Of a stretch of DNA of 59,030 bases, positions 22,185 to 56,250 are shown piece by piece. The DNA is from a virus (taxonomy: Duplodnaviria; Caudoviricetes). Every line of letters starts with the position of its first letter. Positions within the stretch are counted from its first letter, which is position 1. The DNA lies in IMG/VR virus record IMGVR_UViG_3300030406_002145, positions 1 to 59,030 of that record; one strand, 5' to 3'. A model generated the notes under the pieces. That model was not told the DNA's origin. It did no database searches and was given only the letters and a program-made list of their open reading frames with translations. The position numbers and the translations under genes were made by a program.

Positions 22185-25100
22185 TTAAGTACACGGAGTT
22201 CCTGATAAACAATCCGTACATCCCGCTCCCGTGCCACAAGATTGTACGCTTACAGTTATTGCATTTGTAGAGCAATTTTGCTCATATGTTTCAATTGGAG
22301 TGCCATTAATTTGCACAATAAATGGTATGGAGGTACTACACACCTGCCTGCATCCACTTTCTTCGACCACACCACTTTCACTTATTATTTTAGGAGGAAC
22401 AATAACATTGGTAATCGCTGCTGTTGTAAAATCTGTATATTGCAATGTGTATTGACAATTATTACTTGAGTTAACAATACTATAACAGGTCGGATTACCT
22501 GCTCCACAATCACAATCACAACATGTGTCAAATATATTAGCACTGCTATTGTTGGTAGCAGTAAGTGTCTGACACAATAATGTTTTCACTCTGCTTCTAA
22601 CATCTATAATAATATAAAATTCATTTTGTGTTCCTACAGGACTAGGCATAGAAGTGGTCGCTCTCCATTCAGTTGCTAACTTAGTAGCATCCCAACCCGT
22701 AGCAGGCTGCCAACCTTGAAGTTCATCATCCCAATACTCTATATTAGCTTTTGGTATAGCAATAGATGCAGCTAACAAAGCAACCGCATCAGCTTGACTG
22801 TTTTTATTAAAGTTAGTGGATGTTCTTAATATTCTAAAAGTATGAATTTCAGGATTAAACATAACTACCGCCTGTTCATTAGCAGTGACAAAAGGCTGAA
22901 ATTTTATTTCTATATTACTGCCGGGCGGCGGTGCTCCCTGACCCGGAGACTGATTCTGATAAGTTGTATCATTCCAACCTCCTAATCTAGGAACAAAAGG
23001 ATATTCTGTATTGTCACTTGTTGTATTGTATTCACTACCTACAGTATTGTTTGAAGATATACCACTTTGTATAAAGTTTCCAAAGGGCTGAACTGTTCCA
23101 ACCTCACCTCCTGGATTGCTCCATTGCCAGGTTGCAATGTAGCTTATTCCCTCATCCTGACCACTGTTTACATTAAAATAAGCTCCGTTTGCCCAACTGC
23201 CCGTATTGTCTATATCGATAGCTGAAGACACTCCTAAAGGATAATTAGAAGTGTATATTACTGTGTCTATGTTTAAAGGAGCAAGCAAAGGACAGTTAGC
23301 TGTAAAACTAACAGAAGTATTATTTGCTTGTGGTGTTACTTGAACAATACAGTTAGCAGGTGATACAGAAGTTTTTTCCCAAGTTATTATATTAGGACCT
23401 GAGCTGTATGTGCCTGTTGATACTACCGCTCCATCCCATAGCACTGAAACTTGTGCAGGACCGCCCACTATAACAACCTCCCAAACAAGTTGTCCTGTAG
23501 GTGCAGAAGTAGCTGTAGGTTCAAAATCTCCAATAGCTATCTCTACACTTTGAGTTGCAGTCGAACCATTTGGATTTTGAAATGTAACATCACTTCCACA
23601 ATCAAATATTGGTAAATCTAATTCATCATCTATTTCTGATGTTGTTTCACACTCATCAGTAGATGTAATAACGAGTGGTCGGTCATTTATAGATATTACA
23701 TACTCGTTCATGTATGGGTCATACCCTCCTAGCTTTTGTGTGAAAGGAGTAATAGAAGATGGTGTAGCAGCACCCAAACTACTGTTTTGTGGTGTTCCTA
23801 CAAGTTTTGCCGGTCCTTGACCATTAAAAACATCTCTAAAAAATGAACGAAGACCTAACTCAGATATTACAGTAAGCTTCTCAGCAGAAGTGTCTTGCCC
23901 TGTTAGTCTTAGCACTGCACCTCGTTTTTCATCTATAAAAAACTTATCTAAACCATACTGCACATAACTTTCAGGATTATTACTTATACCATATTGCTCG
24001 GTTCTTGCTATCTGAGTTCCTAGCACCTCAGGAACAGAAGCTATGTCACCACCACCCGCAGCATCACTCAGTAGATTTTTACCTTGCAACACATAAGAAA
24101 TTTTATCTTCTTGTAAAACTAAAACATCTGTTTCTCTGGAGTCCATAACTTGTATAGCTCCAAAAGAATCTTCTAAAGATTTAAAATTAACTAAACCAAG
24201 ATTAAACTCATTAAGATTATTAAGACCTGACTCGTCATTAAAAACACCACTGTATGTAATATCAGATGGTCTGTGATTTTGTCTATAATCCTCCTCGGTA
24301 GTGGTTACTGCTCTATTTCCTAAATTAAATGTTTTACCATTTAATTTATCTTCAATCTTGTAACTTTCCACACCATTACCAAATGTAAAACAATTAAAAA
24401 ACTGTAAGTTAATAACGCCTGTAGTTCCTGCTGAACTTGCGTTTGTCACCTGATTTATGTCTCCATGAGCAGCAATACCATTATGAGAGCCATTAGCTGT
24501 ATCTATAGTATATGAATCAGAACCCTCATACCACAGTTCGGGATTAGCATCTGCTGCTAAAGTTTCAAAAACAGTTCCAACCAATGGAAGCTCTATTTCA
24601 ATTCGTGCCTTTACTCTTTTTTGAATAGAGTTACCGCCGCTTCCTTTAATATAAAGAAGTATTTCATTTGTATTAGTGTTTTGAACAAATCTTAAAAGAT
24701 TCTGACAATCATCATTTAAATCAAATCCTGCAAAGATATCATTGATGTTTGTAGTGTTTGTTGCAGGAGTTTCTATGTATGTGTTGGTTACAAAGCCATT
24801 ACAGGGATTGCCAATAGTAACACCTGAGTTTAGTGTTGCACCTATATTCATGCCATTAAAAAACTCAATGAAATTTGAATAGGTAGCGTCAGCAACAAAT
24901 GTTTGTTCATATTTATATTTTAATTTGCCCTGACTACCATCAGAACTATCACCTTTTCTTTTGGTTGAATAAAATATTTTGACAGCAGTGCCTTCGGGTA
25001 TTACAAAAGGTGTAAAAACGGTATTGTTGTCATCATCTAAAGCGGGTGCTCCACTCAAACCTTTATAAGCTAAAACAGGAAAATCTTGAGTGCTAGTAGA

Positions 25101-27932
25101 ACCAGAGCTCTCAAATGCAAATTGTGTTAAATTATAATTATTAACAGGATACGGTACAAGTTGGTCTTGTGTTAAAGCAAAAGGAAAGTTTTTAAGCTGC
25201 ATATATACCCCTTGAGGAACATAGTCTTCTGCTCCCACATTAGGCGTTCCTGAAATCACCTCCTCTACTGTTCCAGGCTCTAAATCTACATCAATAAAGT
25301 TTTTTTCTTTAGCACCTTTTGACAATACCTGAACAACCTCACAAGAGTCCGTAGCACCCAATGCATCTTTTTTAACTATTAGTTGGTCTCCTGTTTCTAC
25401 TTTTAAAGCGTTCTCTCCTTCAAGTAAAAAGTAATAAGAACCATCTAAAGGGTCTTTGAACGACTTACTTGAATAAATAGTATTATATGTATCTTTTGTA
25501 GGTTTTAAAGCAAACTTATAATGAGTTGCCCACTTAGGAGCAAACTGTGTAGGAGGAATAGTTACTTTAATTTTATTTATCAATGATGAGGCTGAACATG
25601 GAAAATGAACCGTTGAAGCAGCCGTTGTTACACTACTATTTATATCTGTTGTTACAAAAGTATCTGTTAGTAGTGGCGGAGTTGCTCTATTAAATTTATC
25701 CATATAAATCATACCAACCTCATAACCTCTATTACTATGTAGACTTTTTTGACCATTAGGGTCAATCAAGGTTACTTTACTAGTATTAATAAATGGCATA
25801 ACCAATGCATTATTTGCTTGACCTGAGGTTGGTGACTGAATAATTGGAATATATATCATGGGATTTAACACCAACTTTATTTCATTCTCTGATGGGCTAG
25901 TATAAAGTATAGGCTCTGTTTGAACCGAAGATGCATTTACGGCAATATTTGAACTGTTACCACTTACATATTTTACCACATTAGATATGTTTCCTAATGG
26001 GGAAACAGGCAACCCTGCCGTTGAAACAGGAGTTATAGTTGGCTCAAACACTGCATTTATAGCATCTGTTAGTGTAGGATTTTCAACAGCACTTGCTGTC
26101 CCAGGAGTAGCAAATCCACCATCAGCAGCAATGCCTGCCCCTAAACGACTTTGAAAATCAGAGCTTAATAATAATTCTTGAGCACTTCCAAATGTCTGGG
26201 GGAGAGTGTAACTCCAATTAACAGACTGAAAATTTAACCCTGTTGTAGGGGCTGCTCCTCCTAGTCCTGTGAAAGTAGTAGTACCACCTAAGTCATATAA
26301 AATATTACCCTGTACAATATTAAATGAAAACTTAATGGTAGCACCCTCAATCAATTGCAATCCTGCAAAATTTATTGTTATTGCAGCTTCAGGAGCAGCA
26401 GGAAGTGTATATCCATATATAGGGTTTGTAAAAGTATGACTGCTCGTTGTTCTAGGCACTACTGTTTCTCCAACTTCTCTTGAGATGCCTGATGCAGTAT
26501 ATTGTATTCTAGTAGGCTCATTAGCATAGTTAATTAAATTATAATTTTCAATATAATTACCATACATTAACCTGTTACCCATGATGGTTTGAGCTTTAGC
26601 AACTCGTGGCACATTATCAAATGTTCTCAATATTTCTTGAACAGGCAATACTTGATATATCTTGCTATTATCAAAAATAATTTCAAATGTAGTATTACTA
26701 GCAACATTATTAGCTGCCTTATTAATTTTTTCTGCCACCTTTATTACAGAACTGTCCGCTTCTTTAAACAACACTTCTATCTCTTCAACCAACTCACTAC
26801 CCGTATCAAAGCTTACTCTAACTCTGTTTTGCTTGTTAAGCATACCCTGATTGTTAAACTCATCAGAAGATATAAAAAACTGTCCCGGCTCAAAAGCAGG
26901 GTCACTAAATTGTGATACAGCAGAATATTGATTATTAGCATATTTAAATCTAGTTGCAAAACATATGTATTTGTCCTCTAAATAATTTACTTCACTATTA
27001 TTGCTAACATCTAAATTTATATTAGGAGAGTTGTTTGGTGGTGCTTTTATTACCATTATCTCTTCAGCACTAAATTGGTCTACAGAGGTTGTACCTATAA
27101 CAGCAGGAGCAGCAGGGGGTGTTATTGTCGGCAAACCATAGGTTCGTGTTACATTAATCATTCTAGGGGGGTTGTAGTTGTCGGTAAAAAACAACATGCC
27201 ATCTATTAGATTAACACCATTAATTAATCTGTTAGGATTAAAATTTAATGTAGTAGAGTATCCTGTAGTGCATGGAACACCATTATATATACTTGCAACC
27301 AATGTTCTCCAAACATTTTCTTGAGTGTCATACGCTACTATTAAATCTATTTTTTGTGTGTTAGTTACTATCTGATAATTATTACCCGCAACAAAAAGGT
27401 CATTCTGTAATTCTACTTGGCTTTGTGATGTAATATTCGAAACAAATGTATGAGGGTTGCCGGCTAAAGAAGTGTTAATAACCTTATCGCCAACTTGAAC
27501 ACCATCAGTTAAAAAAGATGCTGTATTATCTACTAATAACCCCACAATTGTATTAGTGGTTGTACCTGAAGTTATTGTTGTAGAAGGAGAGCCACTTGAG
27601 TCATACACACCTGTCCATTTAGGGTCATGTATAAACCAATAAAGAGTTTCATTTGAAGAATCTCCATAAACACCTAAGCATCTAGCCTGTGAGCTTAATC
27701 CCTGAACAGGAACAGTAACATTTCCTAAAGCATCAAATTGAGGTTGCTGTGGGAATGTAACAGTGGTAAGTCTTGTATTACCTTTTGCAACTTCAACCGA
27801 ACCAATCTCTGTTTCTTCAGTAGAACCTAATCTAACATTTACCGCATCGACATATTCTCCATTAGGTAGGAGTCTTTCATCGATAGCTTTATTCATTCTA
27901 CCCTTAGCAAAATTTCTTTGTATTTTTGCCAT
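22185..27932 (-). CDS. Tail tubular/stabilisation (nozzle) protein with accessory domains
   Basis: GRMNK.IDERLLPNGEY.DA.N, FTDNYNPPR.IN, GNRLMYGNY, GNGVES, YGISNNPES, GGYDP motifs. Confidence 0.75.
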   Translation of the reverse strand: MAKIQRNFAKGRMNKAIDERLLPNGEYVDAVNVRLGSTEETEIGSVEVAKGNTRLTTVTFPQQPQFDALGNVTVPVQGLSSQARCLGVYGDSSNETLYWFIHDPKWTGVYDSSGSPSTTITSGTTTNTIVGLLVDNTASFLTDGVQVGDKVINTSLAGNPHTFVSNITSQSQVELQNDLFVAGNNYQIVTNTQKIDLIVAYDTQENVWRTLVASIYNGVPCTTGYSTTLNFNPNRLINGVNLIDGMLFFTDNYNPPRMINVTRTYGLPTITPPAAPAVIGTTSVDQFSAEEIMVIKAPPNNSPNINLDVSNNSEVNYLEDKYICFATRFKYANNQYSAVSQFSDPAFEPGQFFISSDEFNNQGMLNKQNRVRVSFDTGSELVEEIEVLFKEADSSVIKVAEKINKAANNVASNTTFEIIFDNSKIYQVLPVQEILRTFDNVPRVAKAQTIMGNRLMYGNYIENYNLINYANEPTRIQYTASGISREVGETVVPRTTSSHTFTNPIYGYTLPAAPEAAITINFAGLQLIEGATIKFSFNIVQGNILYDLGGTTTFTGLGGAAPTTGLNFQSVNWSYTLPQTFGSAQELLLSSDFQSRLGAGIAADGGFATPGTASAVENPTLTDAINAVFEPTITPVSTAGLPVSPLGNISNVVKYVSGNSSNIAVNASSVQTEPILYTSPSENEIKLVLNPMIYIPIIQSPTSGQANNALVMPFINTSKVTLIDPNGQKSLHSNRGYEVGMIYMDKFNRATPPLLTDTFVTTDINSSVTTAASTVHFPCSASSLINKIKVTIPPTQFAPKWATHYKFALKPTKDTYNTIYSSKSFKDPLDGSYYFLLEGENALKVETGDQLIVKKDALGATDSCEVVQVLSKGAKEKNFIDVDLEPGTVEEVISGTPNVGAEDYVPQGVYMQLKNFPFALTQDQLVPYPVNNYNLTQFAFESSGSTSTQDFPVLAYKGLSGAPALDDDNNTVFTPFVIPEGTAVKIFYSTKRKGDSSDGSQGKLKYKYEQTFVADATYSNFIEFFNGMNIGATLNSGVTIGNPCNGFVTNTYIETPATNTTNINDIFAGFDLNDDCQNLLRFVQNTNTNEILLYIKGSGGNSIQKRVKARIEIELPLVGTVFETLAADANPELWYEGSDSYTIDTANGSHNGIAAHGDINQVTNASSAGTTGVINLQFFNCFTFGNGVESYKIEDKLNGKTFNLGNRAVTTTEEDYRQNHRPSDITYSGVFNDESGLNNLNEFNLGLVNFKSLEDSFGAIQVMDSRETDVLVLQEDKISYVLQGKNLLSDAAGGGDIASVPEVLGTQIARTEQYGISNNPESYVQYGLDKFFIDEKRGAVLRLTGQDTSAEKLTVISELGLRSFFRDVFNGQGPAKLVGTPQNSSLGAATPSSITPFTQKLGGYDPYMNEYVISINDRPLVITSTDECETTSEIDDELDLPIFDCGSDVTFQNPNGSTATQSVEIAIGDFEPTATSAPTGQLVWEVVIVGGPAQVSVLWDGAVVSTGTYSSGPNIITWEKTSVSPANCIVQVTPQANNTSVSFTANCPLLAPLNIDTVIYTSNYPLGVSSAIDIDNTGSWANGAYFNVNSGQDEGISYIATWQWSNPGGEVGTVQPFGNFIQSGISSNNTVGSEYNTTSDNTEYPFVPRLGGWNDTTYQNQSPGQGAPPPGSNIEIKFQPFVTANEQAVVMFNPEIHTFRILRTSTNFNKNSQADAVALLAASIAIPKANIEYWDDELQGWQPATGWDATKLATEWRATTSMPSPVGTQNEFYIIIDVRSRVKTLLCQTLTATNNSSANIFDTCCDCDCGAGNPTCYSIVNSSNNCQYTLQYTDFTTAAITNVIVPPKIISESGVVEESGCRQVCSTSIPFIVQINGTPIETYEQNCSTNAITVSVQSCGTGAGCTDCLSGTPCT

Positions 27933-31474: not shown

Positions 31475-31504
31475 AAAGAAAGGAGTGTACATGTGTACAC
31501 TCCC
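31475..31504 (-). terminator. Terminator after the major capsid gene, built on the GTGTAC-N4-GTACAC palindrome
   Basis: GGAGTGTAC-acat-GTACACTCC followed by TTTCTTT on the - strand. Confidence 0.75.
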
Positions 31505-39950: not shown

Positions 39951-40053
39951 CTTTTTTTCGATTATATTTTTTTTTGCTTTTATGAACCTTAGGCTTTGTG
40001 TGTTTCCAAAAATCCTTTACATCAATTTTTTTCCACTCAAACTTATCACTCAT
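39916..40053 (-). CDS. Small basic protein, 45 aa (not in track)
   Basis: Hand-translated MSDKFEWKKIDVKDFWKHTKPKVHKSKKKYNRKKDGFKRTKETDY; ATGA-coupled to 40050. Confidence 0.65.
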   Translation of the reverse strand: MSDKFEWKKIDVKDFWKHTKPKVHKSKKKYNRKKDGFKRTKETDY

Positions 40054-40616
40054 AACTTTAACGTTATTTGATGGTCATATATACGATATAGTAATTCACC
40101 ATCTACATAGAACTCATATTCACTATCTGGATTAAAAGCCACTCTATCTCCATTTTTTATTCCTTGTGACTTTAAATATGTATTAGCATATTTCATTTTA
40201 CCTATTAGTGGCTCATATTTACAATTCTTTTGAATGTACATGTTTTGTTCTACAGGCAATGGCTTTACAAAACAATACCTATCATATGTTTTCCACTCTC
40301 CTTTATTTTTATACAAAAAAAACTGTTCACTGTCAATCAAAAAAATATCGTCTTTAAAAAAACTTCTACCACTCTTTTGTCTACCATACATGTCATTATA
40401 ATATTTAAAAACATTATGATGAACTAATAGTGTGTCTCCTTTTTCGATAGGACCTTCGTAGCCTAAAGGTGTTTCAATAACAATAGCTTCACGATTAGAA
40501 AACTTATGGTCTTCTTGTGAAGAGCTAACAACAAACTCTACTCCACCTATTTCTTTTGTATTAGAATATCTTTTATTGCCCTTTGGTTTGACTATAAAAT
40601 CTGTAGGCGACTTCAT
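40050..40616 (-). CDS. Tandem GroES-like (co-chaperonin fold) protein
   Basis: Two GroES-like units: FIVKP...IEKGDTLL and CFVKP...IKNGDRV.F...EF.VDGE. Confidence 0.55.
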   Translation of the reverse strand: MKSPTDFIVKPKGNKRYSNTKEIGGVEFVVSSSQEDHKFSNREAIVIETPLGYEGPIEKGDTLLVHHNVFKYYNDMYGRQKSGRSFFKDDIFLIDSEQFFLYKNKGEWKTYDRYCFVKPLPVEQNMYIQKNCKYEPLIGKMKYANTYLKSQGIKNGDRVAFNPDSEYEFYVDGELLYRIYDHQITLKL

Positions 40617-44042: not shown

Positions 44043-44704
44043 TTAACTTTTCCATTTTCTATAAACAAACCTTTTGGATTCTCCATCGGCTGTCCATAAA
44101 TATTATACATTAAATCACTATTCTTTGATTTTTCTATAACTTCTAGTAATGAAGAGTTACAAGGCAACCCTGTTTCACAATCAATAAACTCTTCTATTAT
44201 AAACTCAACATACTCTGTCTCAACTATTGTGTCATATACTACTACTTCAACTTCTTCTATAACATCAACAAAAAGCGTGTCTAAAACTTCTGCGTATACT
44301 GTATCGGTAATATAAATATATTGTGGTACAGAAACTTCTACCTCAACAGTATCAACTACTATCTCATAAATATATTCAGTGTCAAAGATAGTATCAAACA
44401 AGGTTTCATATTCTGTAAGATACACAGTATCACACCCCACAGGTATTGGGGGCAAACAATTTATAGCTTCTGTTGGACCTTCAGTGTTTTCATCAGCAGC
44501 ATCCACACAGTCTTCCCAACCGTCATTTATCCAATCTGCTTGAACACAACCATCAGGTGAGTATTGAGTCCAATTAGAAGGGTCATCACCGCAAAAGAAT
44601 CCTCCTGACTCAGCACAAGTTATACACAAAAGCTGAAAGTCAAATCCTTGTCCTAACCCAATGTATGACATTAGGAATAAAAAATAAGTTATAAATTTTT
44701 TCAT
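44030..44704 (-). CDS. Secreted Cys-rich protein with LDLa-like motif and T9SS-CTD-like tail
   Basis: Signal peptide; WINDGWEDCVDAADE; DT-repeat stalk; YNIYGQ...KGLFIENGK. Confidence 0.6.
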   Translation of the reverse strand: MKKFITYFLFLMSYIGLGQGFDFQLLCITCAESGGFFCGDDPSNWTQYSPDGCVQADWINDGWEDCVDAADENTEGPTEAINCLPPIPVGCDTVYLTEYETLFDTIFDTEYIYEIVVDTVEVEVSVPQYIYITDTVYAEVLDTLFVDVIEEVEVVVYDTIVETEYVEFIIEEFIDCETGLPCNSSLLEVIEKSKNSDLMYNIYGQPMENPKGLFIENGKVKWHK

Positions 44705-44706
44705 AC

Positions 44707-45735
44707 TTAATAGATTAAATAGTTAAACCCAAACTTCAACTCATATACAGGTATCATCCAATATCTTTGATGTGTTCCTTCAATAAACAAACCTAAATGT
44801 TTTGTTATTCGTGAACCAATTACTACACCTGCATCCCACTCTGCCCAATCGTTTTCATCTTGACCATATTCAAATGAATAATCATCAAGTCCATAATGCA
44901 AAGGTAATAAATTATACCATATGTGAATCCATAGTTTAGGAGTCCATTTATAGTATGAAACGCCTAATACGGCACTGATTTCGTTTTGTGTGCCTAACTT
45001 TTCTAATTCTCGTTGATTAAATGATGCTACTGCATTACCAAAGTAATGTTTGTAAAACTCATCATTAGAAGTAGCTATTACTTCTCCTTCTCTTGACCAA
45101 TGCCAACTTCCATTTACAAACTCTCTGCTATATCCAAAGTCAGCAGCTAGCTCTACAAAAGTGCTTTCACCAGGTGTCCAAAAATCTTCTATAGGGGTAA
45201 TGCCATAAGCCGGATGATTCCTACCCACCACACCTAGTGTAAAGTCCCAAGGTCCTTTGTTTAGTCTTAGTCTAGTATCAAATGATTTATATTCTAATCC
45301 TACTCTTTGATTATCTTTGTATTGCAGCTTAGTAACATTATAGTCACTTAGGTATCGTAACCAAAAGTTAGCATTATTAAACTTCTCACCCCTATTGCGA
45401 ATAAAAGAATAATTAAAAAGATACTCCCAACCATTAGCATTACCAATGGTAACATCATCTGAAACAGTTCTTTCAGTACCATAGTACCATGTTTTAACTT
45501 TGTACTCATAATCAAATCTAGCTATTTTTCTAATACCTATTGTAAGGTTATAGTCATATGGGTTTACCTCCGTAACATCTTGGTAGCCTCTATCAACTGC
45601 AATATAATTTTCTCTCTCTACCATAGATGTACCCATGGTCATAGATGTGTAAATAGTAGAGTATTTAAAAAACTGACCGAAACTTATTAGTGGTATGCTA
45701 AGTAATAATATAAGTAGTCTCATCATTTTTATCAT
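44707..45735 (-). CDS. Putative outer-membrane beta-barrel protein
   Basis: Signal peptide, aromatic-rich alternating strands, C-terminal LKFGFNYLIY. Confidence 0.65.
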   Translation of the reverse strand: MIKMMRLLILLLSIPLISFGQFFKYSTIYTSMTMGTSMVERENYIAVDRGYQDVTEVNPYDYNLTIGIRKIARFDYEYKVKTWYYGTERTVSDDVTIGNANGWEYLFNYSFIRNRGEKFNNANFWLRYLSDYNVTKLQYKDNQRVGLEYKSFDTRLRLNKGPWDFTLGVVGRNHPAYGITPIEDFWTPGESTFVELAADFGYSREFVNGSWHWSREGEVIATSNDEFYKHYFGNAVASFNQRELEKLGTQNEISAVLGVSYYKWTPKLWIHIWYNLLPLHYGLDDYSFEYGQDENDWAEWDAGVVIGSRITKHLGLFIEGTHQRYWMIPVYELKFGFNYLIY

Positions 45736-47750: not shown

Positions 47751-47973
47751 TGCCGTACTTCTCATTCTTTATCATCATAGTATGTCCTGACCTGCGGTCA
47801 TAGTATACTGTATCGTCTTTGCTAATAGCTGTCACCTCTGTCCCTGGTGTAACAACCTTACCTTTCTTGTATCGTATATCTTGCATATCGCCTGACCCTA
47901 GAAGCAGTCCTGACTTAGTCTCTATCTGCTCCTCTATAGTTTTAATAATAATATATTTACCTATTGCTTTCAT
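47716..47973 (-). CDS. groES: Co-chaperonin GroES
   Basis: TKSGLLL mobile loop, GKVVTPG, IIQERDVV; coupled to groEL. Confidence 0.9.
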   Translation of the reverse strand: MKAIGKYIIIKTIEEQIETKSGLLLGSGDMQDIRYKKGKVVTPGTEVTAISKDDTVYYDRRSGHTMMIKNEKYGIIQERDVVVVL

Positions 47974-49580
47974 TTAGTATCATATGTTCTTGCCATAGTT
48001 ACAATAGCATTAGTGCTTAGTATGGTTACCGCTACAGATACTGCGTTCTGTAATGCGTTCTTAGTAACTTTCATAGGGTCTATCACTCCAAGACTTATTA
48101 GATTACCATACTTCTCTTTCTTCACATCATAGCCATGACCCTTAGCCATGTCTTTACTATATATAGCAGAATGCTCTAGTCCTGCATTGTCTAGTATTTG
48201 TTCTAGTGGAGCACTAATCGCTTTAGTTAAAATTGCGTCAGCAATTTTTTGGGAAATATTTTTAGCATCTTTTAAACATTTGTCTGTTGATAACTGATGC
48301 AATGCTCTACCTGCCCCTGGCAGTATCCCTTCCTTCATCGCTGACCTAACGGCACAGACCGCATCATCAACTCTGTCGTATAGTTCTTTTTGCTCTAGGT
48401 CTGTTTTGCCTCCTACATATATCACACCGATGCCTCCCGTTAGTGATGCTATCCTTGACATGATAAACTCACGCTCTACTTTGTCTGATGACAACTTGTG
48501 TGCACCCCACAGCTCCTCTACTCTTTTATTTATCTCGTCATTGTCCTTCTCCTCTGACGAGAGAATAATCGTTGAGTCTCTTCCAACTATCACCTTGGAA
48601 GCTCTACCCAAATCAGGGAAGTCTATTATACTCAAATCATCTCCCGTCTTTTCAGAGAAGTATGTTGAGCCTGTAGATAAAGCAATGTCTTGCATTAGCT
48701 CATGTTGCTTGTAACCGAAGTTGGGAGGAGGTATCACACATATCTTCAATCCCCGCTTCATAACATTAGCCGCTAAAGTATTTAATACATTCTGCGAGCA
48801 TGGTGCTATAATTAGTAATGACTTATTCTCAGCAATCACAGGCTTTAGTATGTTCTCAATATTTAATATGTTAGTTATCTCTGCGTCCGACACAAAGACA
48901 TATGGGTTCTCAAGGATGCACTCATCCTTCTTGTGGTTGTTAACAAACAGTGGATTTGAGTATCCTCTATCTACCTTAACACCCTCCGTACTCTCAAAGT
49001 AGGTGTTGTGAGTCTTAGACTTCTCCACCGTCACAATACCGTTGTCACCAACACTATTATATACATCTGCAATGATTGAGCCTATCACATCGTCATTGTT
49101 AGCACTGATTGTCGCAACTTGTTTAACCTTTGAAGAGGTGACAGGCTTGCTCATCTTCTTTAACTTATCCACCACCTTGTTAGTAGAGTTTACTAGTTCT
49201 CTTAAAACTTCAGTCTTATTACAGTTAGGATACTTCTCCATAACCTCAAGTGCTGACTTTACTAGTGCCTCAGTCAGAACAATAGCTGTGGTAGTACCAT
49301 CACCGGCTGAGGTAGCTGTCCTATCAGCCGCCTCCTTCATCATACGCACCGCTATATTCTCAACAGGGTCTAGGAGTTGAATAGACTTAGCCACAGTCAC
49401 ACCATCCTTTGTTACCGTTAAACTATGGGTATGCTCTGGCGACTCAATGATAACTGTGTTACCACGAGGTCCTAAGGTTGACTTAACTGCTTTTGAGATT
49501 TTTTCTATACCGCTTATTAAGCGTGAGCGACCTTCAGGTCCGAAGTTCAACTCCTTGGGGGTGTATCCTGTTTGATTCAT
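47970..49580 (-). CDS. groEL: Chaperonin GroEL
   Basis: TLGPRG, TKDGVTVA, GDGTTTA, DRVDDA, GVIDP; no GGM tail. Confidence 0.97.
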   Translation of the reverse strand: MNQTGYTPKELNFGPEGRSRLISGIEKISKAVKSTLGPRGNTVIIESPEHTHSLTVTKDGVTVAKSIQLLDPVENIAVRMMKEAADRTATSAGDGTTTAIVLTEALVKSALEVMEKYPNCNKTEVLRELVNSTNKVVDKLKKMSKPVTSSKVKQVATISANNDDVIGSIIADVYNSVGDNGIVTVEKSKTHNTYFESTEGVKVDRGYSNPLFVNNHKKDECILENPYVFVSDAEITNILNIENILKPVIAENKSLLIIAPCSQNVLNTLAANVMKRGLKICVIPPPNFGYKQHELMQDIALSTGSTYFSEKTGDDLSIIDFPDLGRASKVIVGRDSTIILSSEEKDNDEINKRVEELWGAHKLSSDKVEREFIMSRIASLTGGIGVIYVGGKTDLEQKELYDRVDDAVCAVRSAMKEGILPGAGRALHQLSTDKCLKDAKNISQKIADAILTKAISAPLEQILDNAGLEHSAIYSKDMAKGHGYDVKKEKYGNLISLGVIDPMKVTKNALQNAVSVAVTILSTNAIVTMARTYDTK

Positions 49581-50389: not shown

Positions 50390-50803
50390 AGTTTATAGTT
50401 TTATACAAAGATACAAAAAATTATGAGATACACAGACTGTTTGGGTTATATGCTGTGTCACGCACATTGCCCCTCGCACAAAACTGTCTTTTTTTTTAGG
50501 GGGGGAGTGTCGTTTTTGTTGTGCTAGTGCAGATTTTTTTGACTTTTTGTGTGTGTACCGGTAGACATCTGTTAAATATGTGGTAGTGTGTACACCTATA
50601 CACCTTTATACACTCTTAAATCGCACTAAATAAGCCTTATTTAGCGTAAATATGTATGGAGAGAGAAAGAGAGAGAGCGTAACATCCCCATCCAACGAAA
50701 CCAACACAAACTTTTTTTGGGGACATTTGTAGGTTGTAATTGATTGATTTACAGAGTAAAACCTAAAAAAAGCTCTAAAATGACAAAAAAAATTAATATT
50801 GAG

Positions 50804-50834
50804 TTTGTAATATTGAGAATTAATCGTAATTTAG
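50804..50834 (+). promoter_or_regulatory. Early promoter (-33/-7)
   Basis: TTTG-N19-TAATTTAG. Confidence 0.55.
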
Positions 50835-50875
50835 TCAAAGATTAAACAAATAGTAATAACTAAAATTTAAAAATT

Positions 50876-51475
50876 ATGAGAAATTTATTAACAATTGAGA
50901 GCGATGCATTACTACATCCTGAGCTTATCAACGGATTACAAATCATTAAAATCAATACCATTCAAAGAGCCGTATCCAAGAACGAGATGTCCAAGATTAA
51001 CAATTCAAGAAAGCTATCCAAGATTATGCTCGAGTCATACGAGTATTTCAAAACAAGTGGTAAATCAATCTTAGCAGAACTAGGTGTGTTTTGGACGGCA
51101 GAAGACTTTGGTCAAAAGATATTTGGCTTCAAGAAGTCATACTTTATGAGGATGATTAAGTTTGGTAAGCTAACAGATGAACAAGTCATTGAGTTTACTG
51201 ACAAGTGTAAAGAACTGATTGCAGAGGGCGAGAAGCCATCCATATCTGTACCGAGCTGTTTAGACTACATCAAGCAACAAAACCAATCAGATGGTGGAGA
51301 AGCTACACCAAGACAAACTGAATCAGTTGTTCTTCAGTTGAAATTTATGGGTAAAAAACTCAAGGTAACGGGTGATGGAGATGCTCCCACAATCAAAACT
51401 GATTTTGACTCTGATGATATGGAGGAGTTTAACAGACTGATGGAGATTGTTCAGTCATATATCGGTGACAGATAA
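50876..51475 (+). CDS. Early hypothetical protein
   Basis: First ORF of the + arm; A-rich leader. Confidence 0.75.
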   Translation: MRNLLTIESDALLHPELINGLQIIKINTIQRAVSKNEMSKINNSRKLSKIMLESYEYFKTSGKSILAELGVFWTAEDFGQKIFGFKKSYFMRMIKFGKLTDEQVIEFTDKCKELIAEGEKPSISVPSCLDYIKQQNQSDGGEATPRQTESVVLQLKFMGKKLKVTGDGDAPTIKTDFDSDDMEEFNRLMEIVQSYIGDR

Positions 51476-51502
51476 CCAAGCGAGGTGTACACATGTACAC
51501 CT

Positions 51503-51555
51503 CTCTGTCTCAAGGTGTGTGCCTTGACTGATGAGTACAAAAGTACGAAACAGAG
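51503..51555 (+). ncRNA. Hammerhead ribozyme, type III (HH1)
   Basis: CTCTGT-C / TCAAGG tgtgtg CCTTGA / CTGATGA / GTAC aaaa GTAC / GAA-ACAGAG; GUC site, predicted cut after 51509. Confidence 0.93.
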
Positions 51556-51577
51556 TAACTAAATAAAATTTAAAAAT

Positions 51578-52645
51578 ATGAGAAATTTAAACAACGGTAT
51601 TGATTACACACCAATACCCGATAACTATCCTAGAACTGAAATCCATGGATGGCATGGTACTAAAGGATGGGACAAAGACCTAGCCAAAGGGGGCAAAAGA
51701 TATGATTTAAGAGGGTTTACAAGAGCCACAATCAACAAGAATCTAATCACTTATGCAAATGACACCTATGAGTCAAAGTACAAGATAGGGTTTGAGGTTG
51801 AGAAGAATTACTTTCACACCTCTTTGGATTCAAGAAGCCAAGATGTAGGTAAATTATTAGAGTTATTCAGAGGGTACGAGACTGATGGCTCTTGTGGAGT
51901 TGAAGCCGTAACAAACATCTTACCACTATTACCGAATGGTATATGGAGAACTAAAGTGTATGATATGATGCATCAAGCAGAGACCATATTGGATGATAGA
52001 TGGAGTGGTTCAGATTCTCGTTGTGGTGGTCACATTAACCTATCGGTAGTTGGATGGAGTGGTGAAAGATTATTCAAAGCTATACGAGAGTTTAGTGGTT
52101 TGATACAATCTCTGTATCGATTGAGGTTATACAGAACAGAGTACCATATTCGTAATATTGGAGAAGATTTCTGTAATCAGAATATGAATATGATATGCCC
52201 AAGTTCAGAAGATTACTCGATATCATTAAAAGCATTAAATAGTGGTTTGCAGAGGTCAATACCAGGCTCAAGATATAACTTTTGTAGTCAGTATTCCAAT
52301 CGTATTGAGTTTAGAGTCCCTCCAAGAGTGACATCTGTAAAGTGTCTGATGCTCAGATACCAATTGTTCTATGAGTTGGTTGACTTTGCAGTAACCTACG
52401 AGGGCAGAGTTACACCACAGACTCGTAAGAAGTTCTACAACAAGGTTAGACCAATCATTCTTGATATGTCTGATGGTAATGTGGACAAGGCAAGAACAAT
52501 CATATCAGATGCAAGATACTTTCAACAGTTCATTGACACCAAGGGGGATTTCAGAAACAATGCAGTAATCAAAGCATTCATTAATCCTACAAGACAAGTG
52601 GACAGGGACAGAAGAAAGAGATGGTTGAATGGGGAGTGGAGATAG
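51578..52645 (+). CDS. Putative amidoligase (COOH-NH2 ligase, glutamine-synthetase-like fold)
   Basis: GFEVE, DGS..VE, CGGHINL, IEFR motifs. Confidence 0.75.
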   Translation: MRNLNNGIDYTPIPDNYPRTEIHGWHGTKGWDKDLAKGGKRYDLRGFTRATINKNLITYANDTYESKYKIGFEVEKNYFHTSLDSRSQDVGKLLELFRGYETDGSCGVEAVTNILPLLPNGIWRTKVYDMMHQAETILDDRWSGSDSRCGGHINLSVVGWSGERLFKAIREFSGLIQSLYRLRLYRTEYHIRNIGEDFCNQNMNMICPSSEDYSISLKALNSGLQRSIPGSRYNFCSQYSNRIEFRVPPRVTSVKCLMLRYQLFYELVDFAVTYEGRVTPQTRKKFYNKVRPIILDMSDGNVDKARTIISDARYFQQFIDTKGDFRNNAVIKAFINPTRQVDRDRRKRWLNGEWR

Positions 52646-52657
52646 CACTCCCCCAAA

Positions 52658-52716
52658 GTTACTCTGATGAGGATTCAATATCCGAAAGTGGTCAGAATAC
52701 CTGACTACTAAGTAAC
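52658..52716 (+). ncRNA. Hammerhead ribozyme, type I (HH2)
   Basis: GTTACT / CTGATGA / GGAT tcaat ATCC / GAA-AGTGGTCAG aatac CTGACTACT-A / AGTAAC; CUA site, predicted cut after 52710. Confidence 0.92.
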
Positions 52717-52743
52717 AATAATAACTTTTAAATAAATAAAATT

Positions 52744-52947
52744 ATGAGAATAAAAATAGAAGATTACTATGGGAATGATATAGTGGAATTAAATGTTAAA
52801 AAATTAGATAATAACAAATATGAGGATAATATATTTCACCGAAACAAGATTGATATTATAGAAACAGATGAATATAATATAGCAGATGTAGATGAAGATG
52901 AGAAAGGAGAGTATTTAAGAATACAACTAAGTAACAATAAAATTTAA
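52744..52947 (+). CDS. Small acidic early protein
   Basis: Shared leader TAAATAAATAAAATTATG. Confidence 0.7.
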   Translation: MRIKIEDYYGNDIVELNVKKLDNNKYEDNIFHRNKIDIIETDEYNIADVDEDEKGEYLRIQLSNNKI

Positions 52948-52965
52948 AATTAAAAATAATTAACT

Positions 52966-53178
52966 ATGAAAAATAAAATAACCTACGATGACACAAGAGA
53001 CATCGCAATAAGAATTATTGAATTTCTTTTAGATAAGCACTATCTAAGTGAAGATAAGCATATCCAAATGGAGTTGGACGACGAGTGGGATTTTTATCTC
53101 CAAGATGGAATACAAGATAAGATAAATGATGTACTAGGATTAGACATCGATGATAAATTTGAAATAACAATTAAATAA
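52966..53178 (+). CDS. Small acidic early protein
   Basis: Paralogue-like to 53259..53414. Confidence 0.7.
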   Translation: MKNKITYDDTRDIAIRIIEFLLDKHYLSEDKHIQMELDDEWDFYLQDGIQDKINDVLGLDIDDKFEITIK

Positions 53179-53258
53179 ATAAAAATGATTATAATAATAA
53201 CAATTTTAAATATAATAACTAAAACAATATTAAATATAACTTTTAAAAATAATTAACT

Positions 53259-53414
53259 ATGAAAGCAATTTGGAATCAAAAAATTGATAATACTACTGAA
53301 AAAATAACAGATAACATTTTAGATTATTTGTTGGACAATGGGTATATAACAAAAAATATAGATGAGGGGGAGAATATATACTCAATAGTGAGTAAAGAAT
53401 TAAAAAAATTATAA
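53259..53414 (+). CDS. Micro-ORF, 51 aa
   Basis: Hand-translated MKAIWNQKIDNTTEKITDNILDYLLDNGYITKNIDEGENIYSIVSKELKKL. Confidence 0.65.
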   Translation: MKAIWNQKIDNTTEKITDNILDYLLDNGYITKNIDEGENIYSIVSKELKKL

Positions 53415-53443
53415 CTATAAATAACAATTAAATAAATAAAATT

Positions 53444-53563
53444 ATGGAAAAAGAAAAATGTAAATTTTGTGATAGCAAAGAATTAGTTTATCATCAGTAT
53501 ATAATATGCGACTATTATTGCGAAGAATGTGGAGAGTGGCAAAATGGAGAAACAATTAAATAA
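53444..53563 (+). CDS. Micro-ORF, 39 aa, Zn-ribbon
   Basis: CKFC...CEECG; shared leader. Confidence 0.7.
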   Translation: MEKEKCKFCDSKELVYHQYIICDYYCEECGEWQNGETIK

Positions 53564-53571
53564 TTAAAACT

Positions 53572-53751
53572 ATGAAAAATCAATTAAACATAAAAGAATT
53601 ACAATTAATACAAGATTTAATTGTTGATTGGAAATTTAACAGAGATGTTTTGAATCAATTACCCATATCAGATGACAAAAAAGATTTGTTAGATGAAATA
53701 GGCGAAAAATTATTAAATCAAATAAGACAACAAAAAAAATTAAAACTATGA
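53572..53751 (+). CDS. Micro-ORF, 59 aa
   Basis: MKNQLNIKELQLIQDL...; shared leader. Confidence 0.65.
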   Translation: MKNQLNIKELQLIQDLIVDWKFNRDVLNQLPISDDKKDLLDEIGEKLLNQIRQQKKLKL

Positions 53752-53921
53752 AAATATACAGACAATATAAAGATGAAAATACAAGTGAACAAGTTAGTGT
53801 AGAAACATTCTTGCATTATACTGAGGGCAGTGGTTTTTGGGAAAAAGGCACTGCATTAGAAACATTAAAACAATCCGGTGTTATACACACAAGTTTTGCA
53901 ATATACAAACTAAATAAATAA
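53748..53921 (+). CDS. Micro-ORF, 57 aa
   Basis: MKIYRQYKDE...EGSGFWEKGTALETLK; ATGA-coupled. Confidence 0.65.
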   Translation: MKIYRQYKDENTSEQVSVETFLHYTEGSGFWEKGTALETLKQSGVIHTSFAIYKLNK

Positions 53922-53925
53922 AATT

Positions 53926-54051
53926 ATGGACACAATTAAAGAATTAAAAGAATTAGTATCTCTTTTTAAATACAGAGAACGATGTACCAACGATAGTATA
54001 ATAATGGTGGGTGATTTAGAAAAATTAGAAGAATTGATAAATAAATTATAA
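53926..54051 (+). CDS. Micro-ORF, 41 aa
   Basis: MDTIKELKELVSLFKY...; shared leader. Confidence 0.6.
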   Translation: MDTIKELKELVSLFKYRERCTNDSIIMVGDLEKLEELINKL

Positions 54052-54055
54052 AATT

Positions 54056-54211
54056 ATGGACAAGTTAACAAGACAGTTGTTTAAACTAAAATCTTTAGAG
54101 TTGAGGAATGGAACATCTCCGTTCCTCGCTCAACAAATGCAAAAGGTCAGAGACAAGATTGATGCACAAAAAGAGTGTACACGCGTACACCTTAACAAGG
54201 TTTGTAAGTGA
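54056..54211 (+). CDS. Micro-ORF, 51 aa
   Basis: MDKLTRQLFKLKSLELRNG...; contains a palindrome copy at 54175-54190. Confidence 0.6.
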   Translation: MDKLTRQLFKLKSLELRNGTSPFLAQQMQKVRDKIDAQKECTRVHLNKVCK

Positions 54212-54248
54212 CTGAGTATCAGTGAAGTGCAAACTTTTTTCAAAAAGA

Positions 54249-54280
54249 TTTGGTGGTTAAATTTATTTCACTTATCTTTA
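54249..54280 (+). promoter_or_regulatory. Early promoter (-33/-7)
   Basis: TTTG-N20-TATCTTTA. Confidence 0.6.
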
Positions 54281-54583
54281 CAATGTTTTTAAATTTTTCA
54301 TGTGGTGTGGTGGTTGACAAATGAGATTGAGTTCTCGCCATCACACCATCTACTAAATAAAATTTTGCCTAACAATCCTTAGAGTGATAAATATAGTGTA
54401 CACCATTAGGAACTTAGAGTTTATGGAATGTTGCTTAGCTACCAACAGGAAGTAAATGCTCAATACAAAGTTAAAAGAAATTTTATACTAAAGACAAGGC
54501 ATAGTTCAAAGACATCATAGGGGTTGATGTTGAGGACTGTGCCTTTGTTCGTTTATAGAGGTCATAAAAAACTTTCTCTAAAA

Positions 54584-54615
54584 TTTGGATATGTCTAAAT
54601 TTTGTCTTATCTTTG
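54584..54615 (+). promoter_or_regulatory. Early promoter (-33/-7)
   Basis: TTTG-N20-TATCTTTG, full Bacteroidota consensus. Confidence 0.75.
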
Positions 54616-54673
54616 TGTAATACTAACCGAGTTCTACCTCTCAGTTATAGAGGTTGCTCACAAAATTTATACT

Positions 54674-55738
54674 ATGTGTATTATAATAATCAAACAACAG
54701 AAGGACAAGAAAGTCCACAAGCAAACATTAAAAAATTCATCTCGTATCAATCCTCATGGGTTGGGGGTTGTGTGGTTAGATACCTTTGAGGTTACCTACC
54801 ACAAGTCAAATGAGTATGCCATCTTACATACTGAAAGACCATTCATTGCTCACTTTAGATATGCTACCATCGGCAAGGTAAACAGAGAAAACACACATCC
54901 CTTTGTGTGTGGTAATAATTCTGATGAGTTGCTTATGATGAACGGAACGATTCGTAATCTTGGTAATGACACTATGTGTGATAGTAAAGTTCTCGCACAC
55001 TCTCTCGGCAGAGTCAAGCGACAGAATTGGAAAAGCGAGTTGGCTAAGTATGATTGTAGGTTTACTACTATCAACACTCGTACTAGGACATTTCAAATCT
55101 ACAACAAAGAGTTGTGGACAAAAAAGAATGGTGTGTGGTACTCTAAGCCAAATGTACTTATGGACAATCTCGTTGCAGTGTATGGTACATTGAAGAAAGG
55201 TTACAATAATTACAATTCTTATCTAAGAAGAAGTGTATACCTTGGGGGCGGTGTTACTACGGACAAGTATCCTCTTATAATAAGGGGGTTGCCTTATATG
55301 GTAAATCAAAAAGGTATGGGACACAATGTTGAGGTTGATGTGTTCAAGGTGTCTGATGAAGTTCTTGAAAACCTTGATAGGTTAGAGGGGCATCCGGAGT
55401 GGTACAAGCGAGAAAAGGTTGAGATAAATGTAAAGGGCAAGGTGCTATCTTGTTGGGTTTATTTCAATCCCATAGACATCTCAGGTGCTATTGAGTTTCA
55501 CAAAACCTACACACAACAAACTTCTATACCATCATACACTCCTACTGATTATGATTGGAGTCAACACACCTTTGACTTTGATGATGATGATGATGACTCA
55601 TCTATGATTGTTGAGGATGGTAAGCCATACTGTGTGGAGTGCTTCAATGAATTAGAGAACGATGGATACGATAACTACTGTTGCAAGGGTTGTCATAGTT
55701 GGTATACTCAAAACCAAATAAATAACTTAAATTATTAA
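54674..55738 (+). CDS. Class II glutamine amidotransferase fused to gamma-glutamylcyclotransferase (AIG2-like) and a C-terminal Cys cluster
   Basis: MCIII (N-terminal nucleophile Cys), HG.G, HFRYAT.G, NTHPF, NG; VYGTLKKG, LDRLEG; CxxC...CxxC; start moved to 54674. Confidence 0.88.
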   Translation: MCIIIIKQQKDKKVHKQTLKNSSRINPHGLGVVWLDTFEVTYHKSNEYAILHTERPFIAHFRYATIGKVNRENTHPFVCGNNSDELLMMNGTIRNLGNDTMCDSKVLAHSLGRVKRQNWKSELAKYDCRFTTINTRTRTFQIYNKELWTKKNGVWYSKPNVLMDNLVAVYGTLKKGYNNYNSYLRRSVYLGGGVTTDKYPLIIRGLPYMVNQKGMGHNVEVDVFKVSDEVLENLDRLEGHPEWYKREKVEINVKGKVLSCWVYFNPIDISGAIEFHKTYTQQTSIPSYTPTDYDWSQHTFDFDDDDDDSSMIVEDGKPYCVECFNELENDGYDNYCCKGCHSWYTQNQINNLNY

Positions 55739-55797
55739 TTACTCTGATGAGTCCTTTGTGGACGAAACAAGTGTACACATGTACACTTGTCAGTAAT
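55738..55797 (+). ncRNA. Hammerhead ribozyme, type I (HH3)
   Basis: ATTACT / CTGATGA / GTCC tttgt GGAC / GAA-ACAAGTGTAC acat GTACACTTGT-C / AGTAAT; GUC site, predicted cut after 55791. Confidence 0.94.
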
Positions 55798-55814
55798 AAA
55801 CAACAACAAACAAA

Positions 55815-56057
55815 ATGACTGAATTAAAAAAAGATGCTCGTGATATATTAAATAGAATGAGAAAAGCTACGGCAGAAAGATTTAAACTATTAGTGATGTT
55901 TATAGTCACATTAGCATCCCTTGGTGGGGGTGGTTATGGTTGCTATGTATCATTAGAGAGTGCCGGTGGACAGATAATGACCTTCCTACTGTGTGCAGTA
56001 TGGGTATGGTTTGGTGTGGCTATGTTAGATTTATTTAGAGACATGTATAAAAAATAA
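55815..56057 (+). CDS. Small two-TM membrane protein
   Basis: Basic N-terminus and two hydrophobic helices. Confidence 0.7.
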   Translation: MTELKKDARDILNRMRKATAERFKLLVMFIVTLASLGGGGYGCYVSLESAGGQIMTFLLCAVWVWFGVAMLDLFRDMYKK

Positions 56058-56061
56058 AATT

Positions 56062-56250
56062 ATGGAAAAAGAAAACAAAAACTATTCAGTATCAGTATGG
56101 GATATTCAATTCTATATGGTAGATGAAGATGGAAACGAAAAATTAGATGATAATGGAAATATACAAAAATATATATTTGAGGGTAGATTAAAACCTTTAG
56201 AGTATTTATGTGAGGGTATGACAGAAGATGAATTAACTAAAATTAAATAA
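56062..56250 (+). CDS. Small acidic protein
   Basis: VWDIQFY.VDEDGN. Confidence 0.7.
   Translation: MEKENKNYSVSVWDIQFYMVDEDGNEKLDDNGNIQKYIFEGRLKPLEYLCEGMTEDELTKIK

Follow-up and report, generated by a model that had tools for sequence, protein, structure and literature searches.

The 59,030-bp virus genome record IMGVR_UViG_3300030406_002145 (Duplodnaviria; Caudoviricetes) carries three hammerhead ribozyme motifs, here called HH1, HH2 and HH3, between genes of its replication-side coding block. The window referred to throughout is this whole record, positions 1 to 59,030; its source sequencing data are labelled as marine metagenomes. Based on Pfam and PHROG scans, a minus-strand block at about 7.6-49.6 kb encodes the terminase, the portal, virion proteins, GroEL and GroES. 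A plus-strand block runs from about 50 to 59 kb, resumes at 1-7 kb and encodes a Sak annealing protein, an exonuclease, a primase with a BT4734-like domain, a helicase and many small open reading frames (ORFs). The ribozyme-bearing block is the one with the replication genes, on the strand opposite to the structural genes.

HH1 lies between an ORF of 199 amino acids (aa) and a 355-aa gene whose product looks like a ligase, HH2 follows the latter gene, and HH3 follows an ORF that we call GATase-GGACT after its matches to glutamine amidotransferases and gamma-glutamyl cyclotransferases (Table 1). The first base of HH3 is also the final base of the stop codon of the preceding gene.

Table 1. Hammerheads, hairpins, palindromes and neighbouring ORFs in the window (MFE, minimum free energy; nt, nucleotides)
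Feature	Position	Strand	Basis
HH1, type III hammerhead	51503-51555	+	Descriptor, MFE fold, sub-cut-off RF00008 score
HH2, type I hammerhead	52658-52716	+	Descriptor, MFE fold, R2 model
HH3, type I hammerhead	55738-55797	+	Descriptor, MFE fold, R2 model
Hairpin GAGGUGUAC-ACAU-GUACACCUC abutting HH1, includes palindrome GTGTACACATGTACAC	51482-51503	+	Sequence, fold, palindrome scan
Candidate hairpin GGGGAGUG-GAGAUAG-CACUCCCC across the stop codon of the 355-aa gene, 4 nt before HH2	52631-52653	+	Sequence
Palindrome sites	1083-1098, 7029-7044, 31485-31500, 50588-50603, 51485-51500, 54175-54190, 55771-55786		Palindrome scan
199-aa ORF upstream of HH1	50876-51475	+	ORF list; no Pfam or PHROG match
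355-aa gene between HH1 and HH2	51578-52645	+	AlphaFold/Foldseek: putative glutamine-synthetase-like fold
Seven small ORFs (41-70 aa), HH2 to GATase-GGACT gene	52744-54211	+	ORF list
GATase-GGACT ORF	54602-55738	+	Pfam GGACT E 5.9e-22; PHROG 2520

Detection and structure of the three hammerheads

Our own descriptor asks for the core and GAA, for a stem II hairpin, for H17 and an A15.1-U16.1 pair, and for at least 4 bp in each of stems I and III; with it we scanned both strands of the whole genome for type I and type III topologies. Core position 7 was left free after a version that accepted only U passed over a copy with the core CUGACGA in the related locus L002. The scan returned exactly three hammerheads, all on the plus strand and none on the minus strand, compared to none in 400 first-order Markov genomes of equal size scanned on both strands. 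Judged from sequence, the three elements are genuine hammerhead motifs, far above chance. An earlier sequence-only reading of this DNA had listed the same three elements, and its positions, strand and types prove correct to the base.

All three contain the conserved core, with CUGAUGA (C3 U4 G5 A6 N7 G8 A9) and GAAA (G12 A13 A14), and all form the core-adjacent pairs 1.1-2.1, G10.1-C11.1 and A15.1-U16.1, which Perreault et al. 2011 use as a filter (PMC3088659). Stems I, II and III measure 7, 4 and 6 bp in HH1, 6, 4 and 9 bp in HH2 and 6, 4 and 10 bp in HH3, with zero mismatches. This result confirms the intact CUGAUGA...GAAA...NUH cores and three paired stems noted earlier, each stem being uninterrupted. 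HH1 combines stem III CUCUGU/ACAGAG with a 7-bp stem I closed by a 4-nt loop and a stem II GUAC/GUAC with loop AAAA. In HH2, stem I is GUUACU/AGUAAC, stem II is GGAU/AUCC and stem III has 9 bp. HH3 has stem I AUUACU/AGUAAU, stem II GUCC/GGAC and a stem III (55767-55790, 10 bp) formed by the palindrome GTGTACACATGTACAC at 55771-55786. The earlier statement that the copies differ in stem sequence is right for stems II and III; it does not hold for stem I, where HH2 and HH3 share five of six pairs (UUACU/AGUAA).

The cleavage nucleotide H17 (not G), which follows U16.1, is C, A and C in HH1, HH2 and HH3, respectively. The predicted cuts fall after C51509 (GUC^U), after A52710 (CUA^A) and after C55791 (GUC^A), at the positions 51509/10, 52710/11 and 55791/92 that had been read from the sequence before. 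From the predicted cut to the next ATG, HH2 leaves a leader of 33 nt (ATG 52744) and HH3 one of 23 nt (ATG 55815), again in agreement with the first account.

For each isolated element, the MFE structure is the hammerhead secondary structure (z = -2.3, -3.4 and -3.2 for HH1, HH2 and HH3, respectively). The MFE structure of HH2 and HH3 stays a hammerhead in 91-nt contexts.

The sequence-only reading had also proposed a search with the Rfam hammerhead models. This search gives no match in the window at the gathering thresholds. Below the cut-offs, HH1 aligns end to end with Hammerhead_3 (RF00008; 41.1 bits, E 1.2e-6, cut-off 48.5) and HH3 aligns end to end with RAGATH-1-hammerhead (RF03152; 29.9 bits, E 0.045, cut-off 56.3); HH2 matches no Rfam family at E <= 10. 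We do not assign HH3 to RAGATH-1, as the 5' hairpin region of that family is aligned at low posterior probability. A gathering threshold is a curated convenience cut-off and not a biochemical criterion. The window elements thus share the catalytic core and the three-way junction of Hammerhead_3, Hammerhead_1 (RF00163) and RAGATH-1, and differ from these families in scoring below every cut-off, with HH2 undetected and the RAGATH-1 5' hairpin poorly matched in HH3.

Hammerheads in related phages

A profile search of IMG/VR yielded 277 homologous stretches confirmed by tblastn, of which we examined the best 80 loci, mostly from 55-65-kb contigs. Two covariance models were used: R1 for type III, built from 11 seeds including HH1, and R2 for type I, built from four relatives with no window sequence among its seeds. 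R1 gives 144 matches in the window and the 80 loci (823 kb), every one on the gene strand. R2 gives 35 matches in 86 sources and recovers HH2 (37.0 bits, E 4.8e-7) and HH3 (39.8 bits, E 7.5e-8), with nothing further in the window. Together, the two models find 170 hammerheads in the 80 related loci, all on the gene strand; 68 loci contain at least one, and the copy number per locus ranges from 0 to 5. The type I counts are lower bounds because R2 misses a type I copy found by the descriptor (L018, 8016-8076).

The paired positions covary strongly. For type III, 93.2% of the alignment cells are paired, 14 of 17 pairs change on both sides, and the covariation score is 0.658 compared to 0.228 for shuffled alignments and at most 0.113 for slid controls. 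For type I, the figures are 99.0%, 17 of 18 pairs and a score of 0.876 compared to 0.182. Each alignment had been fitted to its model, a procedure that is biased towards the structure. Loops are conserved as well. Among 123 distinct type III sequences, loop I is most often UGAGUG (43) or UGUGUG (12), the latter being the form in HH1, and loop II is CAAAAG in 54, as in HH1. This conservation would fit a tertiary contact between stem I and stem II but provides no covariation.

The closest fully syntenic relative, L001, with 56% aa identity in the flanked gene, has the same three hammerheads, one at each of the corresponding junctions. Its HH1 orthologue differs in the sequence of every stem, and the stems still pair. 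In stem III of its HH2 orthologue, one pair is changed on both sides (G-C to A-U) and another goes from G-U to A-U. In stem III of the HH3 orthologue, an A-U pair has become U-A, and the H17 of this copy changes from C to A. These compensatory changes bear out the proposal that the fold rather than the sequence is conserved. In a metagenome contig with 91% identity (L099), HH1 is identical even though there are many differences in the final 40 nt of the ORF upstream. In each of five complete relatives, we found four type III matches, all inside 3.2-4.1 kb beside the ligase-like gene.

Gene order around the elements is shared across the 80 loci. A homologue of the 199-aa ORF (73/80 by tblastn) always stands just upstream of the homologue of the 355-aa gene (80/80), followed by a variable stretch and the GATase-GGACT gene (66/80). 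Conservation of the fold, the strand and the junction extends over a large clade of uncultured aquatic phages of roughly 60 kb. With the covariation, the conserved junctions and the strict strand bias, the comparison with relatives that the sequence-only reading had called for comes out in favour of the motifs.

This clade has no cultured member in a collection of 50,697 phage records, because blastn with 50800-56100 and tblastn with the 355-aa protein as query each gave just one match there, in both cases to a metagenomic Caudoviricetes record (65.8% identity over 5% of the query and 34.5% aa identity, respectively).

The three junctions are occupied to different extents and by different devices. 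After the homologue of the 355-aa gene (HH2 position, 79 loci), we found a hammerhead in 61 loci (60 type III and 1 type I), a tRNA-like minihelix in 8, a terminator-like site in 3 and nothing in 7. After the GATase-GGACT gene (HH3 position, 63 loci), the corresponding numbers are 32, 0, 5 and 26; one of these 26 empty loci has a type I copy seen by the descriptor alone. Between the 199-aa ORF and the 355-aa gene (HH1 position, 73 loci), they are 11, 6, 0 and 56. The occurrence of different 3'-end or cleavage devices at one junction suggests that processing, i.e. the making of RNA ends, is the likely selected function, and this interchange is the strongest indirect argument that RNA-end formation is selected.

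The tRNA-like minihelices replace the hammerhead after the ligase-like gene, for example in L087 (3105-3146), L080 (5880-5923), L030 (5875-5917) and L027 (5891-5933); L022, L033, L070 and L075 have one at the same junction. They consist of a 5-7-bp acceptor stem, a linker of 10-13 nt and a T-arm with a UUCGANU loop, and ARAGORN calls no tRNA in them. Their acceptor stems covary (GAGCGG/CCGCUC versus GCAAAG/CUUUGC). Their sequence features make these minihelices candidates for cleavage by RNase P/Z. We found the 11-mer of the T-arm in 30 of 97 loci, nearly always on the gene strand, and some of these occurrences are true tRNA genes. In the window, ARAGORN finds no tRNA, and a T-arm motif search gives two one-mismatch matches compared to 0.71 expected.

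Other structured RNAs occur in single loci. L074, a locus with no hammerhead, has a twister-P3 element at 4895-4972, immediately before the ligase-like gene, that scores 61.8 bits (Rfam cut-off 39.9), and L091 has a DUF805b RNA motif at 4121-4155 (39.0 bits, over the Rfam cut-off of 35.6).

Junction layout and predicted RNA processing

A strong hairpin stands immediately 5' of most type III copies. The 39 nt upstream reach an MFE of -8 kcal/mol or lower in 127 of 133 distinct copies, compared to 13.5% and 11.3% of control windows, and the mean is -15.7 kcal/mol compared to -4.7 and -4.6 kcal/mol in the controls. The hairpin abutting HH1 has the same layout in L001 and L002. At the place of the candidate hairpin before HH2, L001 has a different sequence that is also able to pair. 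In both topologies, the predicted cut falls 1-8 nt after a strong hairpin, which stands just 5' of stem III in type III and is stem III itself in type I.

The distance to the next gene is also constrained. The next ATG-ORF starts at a median of 21 nt past type III copies (interquartile range 19-26) and 16 nt past type I copies (interquartile range 15-18); in the window, the distances from the end of the element to the next ORF start are 22 (HH1), 27 (HH2) and 17 nt (HH3).

The hairpins often contain a recurrent palindrome. The 16-nt family consisting of GTGTACACATGTACAC and its variants has seven sites in the window compared to 0.45 expected, two of them tied to hammerheads: the 51485 site abuts HH1 and the 55771 site forms stem III of HH3. 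In relatives, the palindrome takes the version GTGTCTTYRAAGACAC, is often found about 20 nt before start codons and often builds the upstream hairpin of type III copies. Across 66 loci there are 339 GTGTC..GACAC sites, 85 of which are directly 5' of a type III copy. Since the sequence of the palindrome is conserved beyond the need for pairing, it suggests a protein partner or a site that acts at the DNA level. Away from the hammerheads, the minus-strand palindrome at 31485 lies behind a virion-protein gene and is a hairpin with a U-rich tract next to it, and the palindromes at 1083 and 50588, in longer intergenic regions, are of a common variant, GTGTACACCTATACAC.

Translation signals in the window are of an unusual kind. 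None of 54 ATG-ORFs in the coding blocks (at least 70 aa) has GGAG, GAGG or AGGA at -20 to -4, and the 20-nt regions upstream of these ORFs are 51% A and 30% T. Judging by these upstream regions, the window genes initiate translation without Shine-Dalgarno pairing. Together with the BT4734-like primase domain and general knowledge, this initiation suggests a Bacteroidota host.

We consider it probable (roughly 0.75) that the hammerheads act by constitutive co-transcriptional self-cleavage and so punctuate a polycistronic mRNA at its intercistronic junctions. As RNA polymerase passes a junction, the ribozyme would fold and cut after H17, leaving a 2',3'-cyclic phosphate on the upstream RNA and a 5'-OH on the downstream RNA. 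Because the cut falls so close behind a strong hairpin, the upstream mRNA would end in a stem-loop like a terminated transcript, while transcription would go on. After the HH1 cut, for example, the 51482-51503 hairpin would be separated by 6 nt from the 3' end newly formed on the upstream RNA. Downstream of a type I copy, the leader would be short, unstructured and A-rich and would begin with 5'-OH, as with the 33- and 23-nt leaders of the window; downstream of a type III copy, it would comprise the body of the ribozyme and a further 21 nt or so. Cuts at HH1 and HH2 would free the 355-aa ligase-like gene as a separate RNA of about 1.2 kb with both ribozyme bodies, and the small ORFs together with the GATase-GGACT gene would form a second RNA unit. 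The likely benefit would be separate stability and translation for each unit in a phage that has no Shine-Dalgarno sequences. Of the earlier proposal that this phage self-processes its early mRNA, one part is now well founded: the hammerheads are real, sense-strand, intercistronic and conserved in position and fold (L001, L099; 170/170 matches on the gene strand). The other part, i.e. cleavage, a single transcript and its early timing, is still a prediction.

Several observations weigh against self-cleavage as the function. None of the three elements attains the curated Rfam thresholds. In an 83-nt context, the HH1 fold has -27.9 kcal/mol compared to an MFE of -30.3 kcal/mol (2.4 worse), and in that MFE structure the flanking hairpin takes over two stem III bases. 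For the type I copies HH2 and HH3, we found no loop-loop or pseudoknot contact and no partner for loop II, and their loop II sequences (UCAAU, UUUGU) are unlike the UGAAU common in the clade (17/31 distinct sequences); hammerheads with no tertiary contacts are slow at cellular Mg2+ (PMC13725137). The elements are also dispensable, because 12 of the 80 relatives have no hammerhead in the examined locus and just 11 of 73 have one at the HH1 junction. Finally, the stabilising role of the hairpin and the effect on translation are points that we infer.

The low Rfam scores could be read as a sign that the motifs are chance matches or decayed, inactive relics. We find this scarcely credible given the empty random genomes, the covariation, strict strand bias and positional conservation in relatives, and the identity of HH1 in L099. 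Cleavage might instead be conditional, i.e. slow or switched by hairpin competition, Mg2+ or a palindrome-bound protein, and might time or throttle the ligase-like and GATase-GGACT genes. The competition between the HH1 fold and the extended adjacent hairpin would fit such a switch, and so would the palindrome, whose seven window copies and many copies in relatives suggest a protein partner; regulated cleavage of phage hammerheads is also raised by Perreault et al. 2011 (PMC3088659). Nevertheless, we regard conditional cleavage as quite improbable: there is no aptamer-like extension, the cores are canonical and not attenuated variants, and the conserved loops I and II of the type III copies are as expected of a fast ribozyme stabilised by tertiary contacts.

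Two further possibilities accept cleavage and differ in its purpose. The hammerheads may be insulators or boundaries of exchangeable accessory-gene cassettes, which buffer new small genes from their neighbours or travel with the cassettes, and may not serve mainly the stability of conserved genes. In line with this, the seven small ORFs behind HH2 have no homologue in the 80 loci and are flanked by conserved genes, the copy number varies from locus to locus, and the window and L001 have a type I copy where 60 relatives have type III, which implies replacement. The flanked genes are likewise not constant according to Perreault et al. 2011 (PMC3088659), and a 2017 review describes flanked ORFs as small and non-conserved (PMC6155905). 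However, the best-conserved positions follow two conserved genes (61/79 and 32/63) and not variable ones, and we saw no repeats or mobility genes around the elements. We therefore think a boundary function unlikely as the main purpose; it also largely overlaps with self-cleavage at junctions because cleavage is still required. The segment between two cuts, such as 51510-52710, might alternatively be circularised by an RtcB-type ligase, as with viroid-like agents and retrozymes. The 1.2-kb RNA would carry 5'-OH and 2',3'-cyclic phosphate ends, and such ends are RtcB substrates. Circularisation seems very improbable to us, as no ligase gene was seen among the scanned window proteins and, in most relatives, the gene has a hammerhead on just one of its sides. 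Perreault et al. 2011 considered the possibility, sought spliced or circular products and detected none (PMC3088659).

Returning to self-cleavage at gene junctions, the shared layout permits a broader proposal, which we advance tentatively and with the odds somewhat against it. Junctions of the clade may be built as a modular punctuation cassette: a stop codon, a strong and often palindromic hairpin, an interchangeable device that cuts the RNA or forms its end, a fixed A-rich spacer of about 16-21 nt and a start codon. The device could be a hammerhead, either of type III or, with the hairpin serving as stem III, of type I; a twister, a terminator or a tRNA-like acceptor/T-arm minihelix, cut by RNase P/Z, could take its place. 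Such a cassette would be a phage counterpart of tRNA punctuation in mitochondria and would provide every cistron with a free 5' end close to its start codon in hosts that use no Shine-Dalgarno sequences and are probably Bacteroidota. If true, this proposal would assign a function to phage-associated self-cleaving ribozymes.

Comparable processing is known from other systems. RNase III cuts the early polycistronic mRNA of T7 between cistrons, leaving stem-loop 3' ends and giving each cistron its own ends. In contrast, the window elements would need no protein enzyme and are predicted to leave 5'-OH and 2',3'-cyclic phosphate instead of 5'-phosphate and 3'-OH. In operons engineered with RiboJ insulators or Csy4 processing, cleavage of an element placed before a cistron gives this cistron a standard 5' leader that is independent of the preceding sequence. 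The junctions described here would be a natural counterpart, with the difference that the extra hairpin of RiboJ lies downstream of the ribozyme and here it lies upstream.

The processing hypothesis for clustered phage hammerheads is already published. Perreault et al. 2011 described clustered hammerheads flanking prophage genes, in Agrobacterium tumefaciens (the ardA triple), Clostridium scindens and Azorhizobium caulinodans; three tandem arrangements cleave in vitro, one of them also in E. coli, and the proposed role is to cut long phage transcripts into gene-length mRNAs (PMC3088659). As in those clusters, the window has several sense-strand hammerheads of mixed topology between phage genes, with one gene bracketed by two. 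Those clusters are integrated, come from cultured hosts and have been shown to cleave, whereas the elements described here belong to an uncultured 59-kb marine phage known from sequence alone. Junction conservation across a clade, coupling to an adjacent hairpin and a fixed 16-21 nt to the next start codon go beyond what the prophage clusters offer. We found no published description of this clade or of such clade-wide positional conservation, hairpin coupling or fixed start-codon spacing, and claim no priority for them (subscription papers and supplements were outside the scope of this search); the main text of PMC3088659 does not contain the words 'terminator', 'stem-loop' or 'exonuclease' (supplements again outside the scope).

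A cultured phage with a similar element is Pseudomonas phage PaP3 (AY078382, L098), where R1 matches a hammerhead at 45417-45469 on the minus strand (53.8 bits, E 4.6e-15). Like HH1, it is type III, with loop I UGUGUG and loop II UAAA of the same type, and it lies directly upstream of orf71 in a block of small leftward ORFs. Unlike the window copies, it has U/U in place of G10.1-C11.1 as the closing pair of stem II, no other strong copy accompanies it (a further candidate at 44070-44123 scores 12.1 bits, E 0.23), and it is not beside the amidotransferase-like gene (orf46). The Figure S6 legend of PMC3088659 lists the PaP3 ribozyme among active core variants.

What hammerheads, twisters and related ribozymes do beside phage genes has been called an open question in reviews (2017, PMC6155905; 2019, PMC6765202). 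The window adds no new kind of ribozyme. It leads into a large natural data set, the 277 homologous IMG/VR stretches, which gives a comparative handle on this question, and it sharpens the idea of mRNA processing to specific predictions, namely hairpin-capped 3' ends and defined leaders with no Shine-Dalgarno sequences. Operon design in Bacteroidota-like hosts may also profit from the junction parts as natural insulators.

Neighbouring genes and other features of the window

The 355-aa protein has many homologues in metagenomes. The protein itself has no Pfam, PHROG or PDB-profile match, and 38 members of its family show no Pfam match at E <= 1 apart from scattered noise. Its AlphaFold model (pLDDT, the predicted model confidence, 88.1) has as top Foldseek matches glutamine synthetases, GmaS (gamma-glutamylmethylamide synthetase), YbdK, glutamate-cysteine ligase and PafA, with probabilities of 0.9-1.0 and low TM (structural similarity) scores of 0.24-0.34. 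Nine residues are invariant in the family: E73, E75, K76, E101, D103, H152, R183, E244 and R246. From the model, the protein looks like a carboxylate-amine ligase with a glutamine-synthetase-like fold, which the invariant acidic, His and Arg residues would fit.

In the GATase-GGACT ORF, the GGACT domain is a gamma-glutamyl cyclotransferase domain; the GATase_6 and GATase_4 matches fall below the Pfam cut-offs and amount to a weak match to class-II glutamine amidotransferases. The true start of this ORF probably lies downstream of the listed TTG. The gene is conserved together with the ligase-like gene, and the pair looks like a small module for forming amide bonds. Phages of the LUZ24/PaP3 type have amidoligase and amidotransferase genes in their early region (PMC3890496). 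We considered extending the link between hammerhead and ligase to these phages and found it unsupported, as the PaP3 hammerhead starts a leftward block away from those genes; no paper joining 'hammerhead' with 'amidoligase' was found in the searchable literature.

By tblastn, none of the seven small ORFs has a match in the 80 related loci; they make up a hypervariable island (52744-54211) between two conserved genes, bounded by HH2.

Promoter-like sites in the window are at chance level (53 found compared to 49.0 expected). There are nine terminator-like sites in the window, none of them on the plus strand between the ribozymes, a result that is neutral on whether the region is one transcript.

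The minus-strand block encodes a GroEL-type chaperonin at 47970-49580 (PHROG 5725, E 3e-132) and a GroES-like co-chaperonin at 40050-40616 (PHROG 13932). It also contains two very large ORFs. The first, at 7606-14679 (2,357 aa), has no Pfam domain and matches a PHROG of unknown function over its first 500 residues only; the second, at 22185-27932 (1,915 aa), matches a virion structural protein family.

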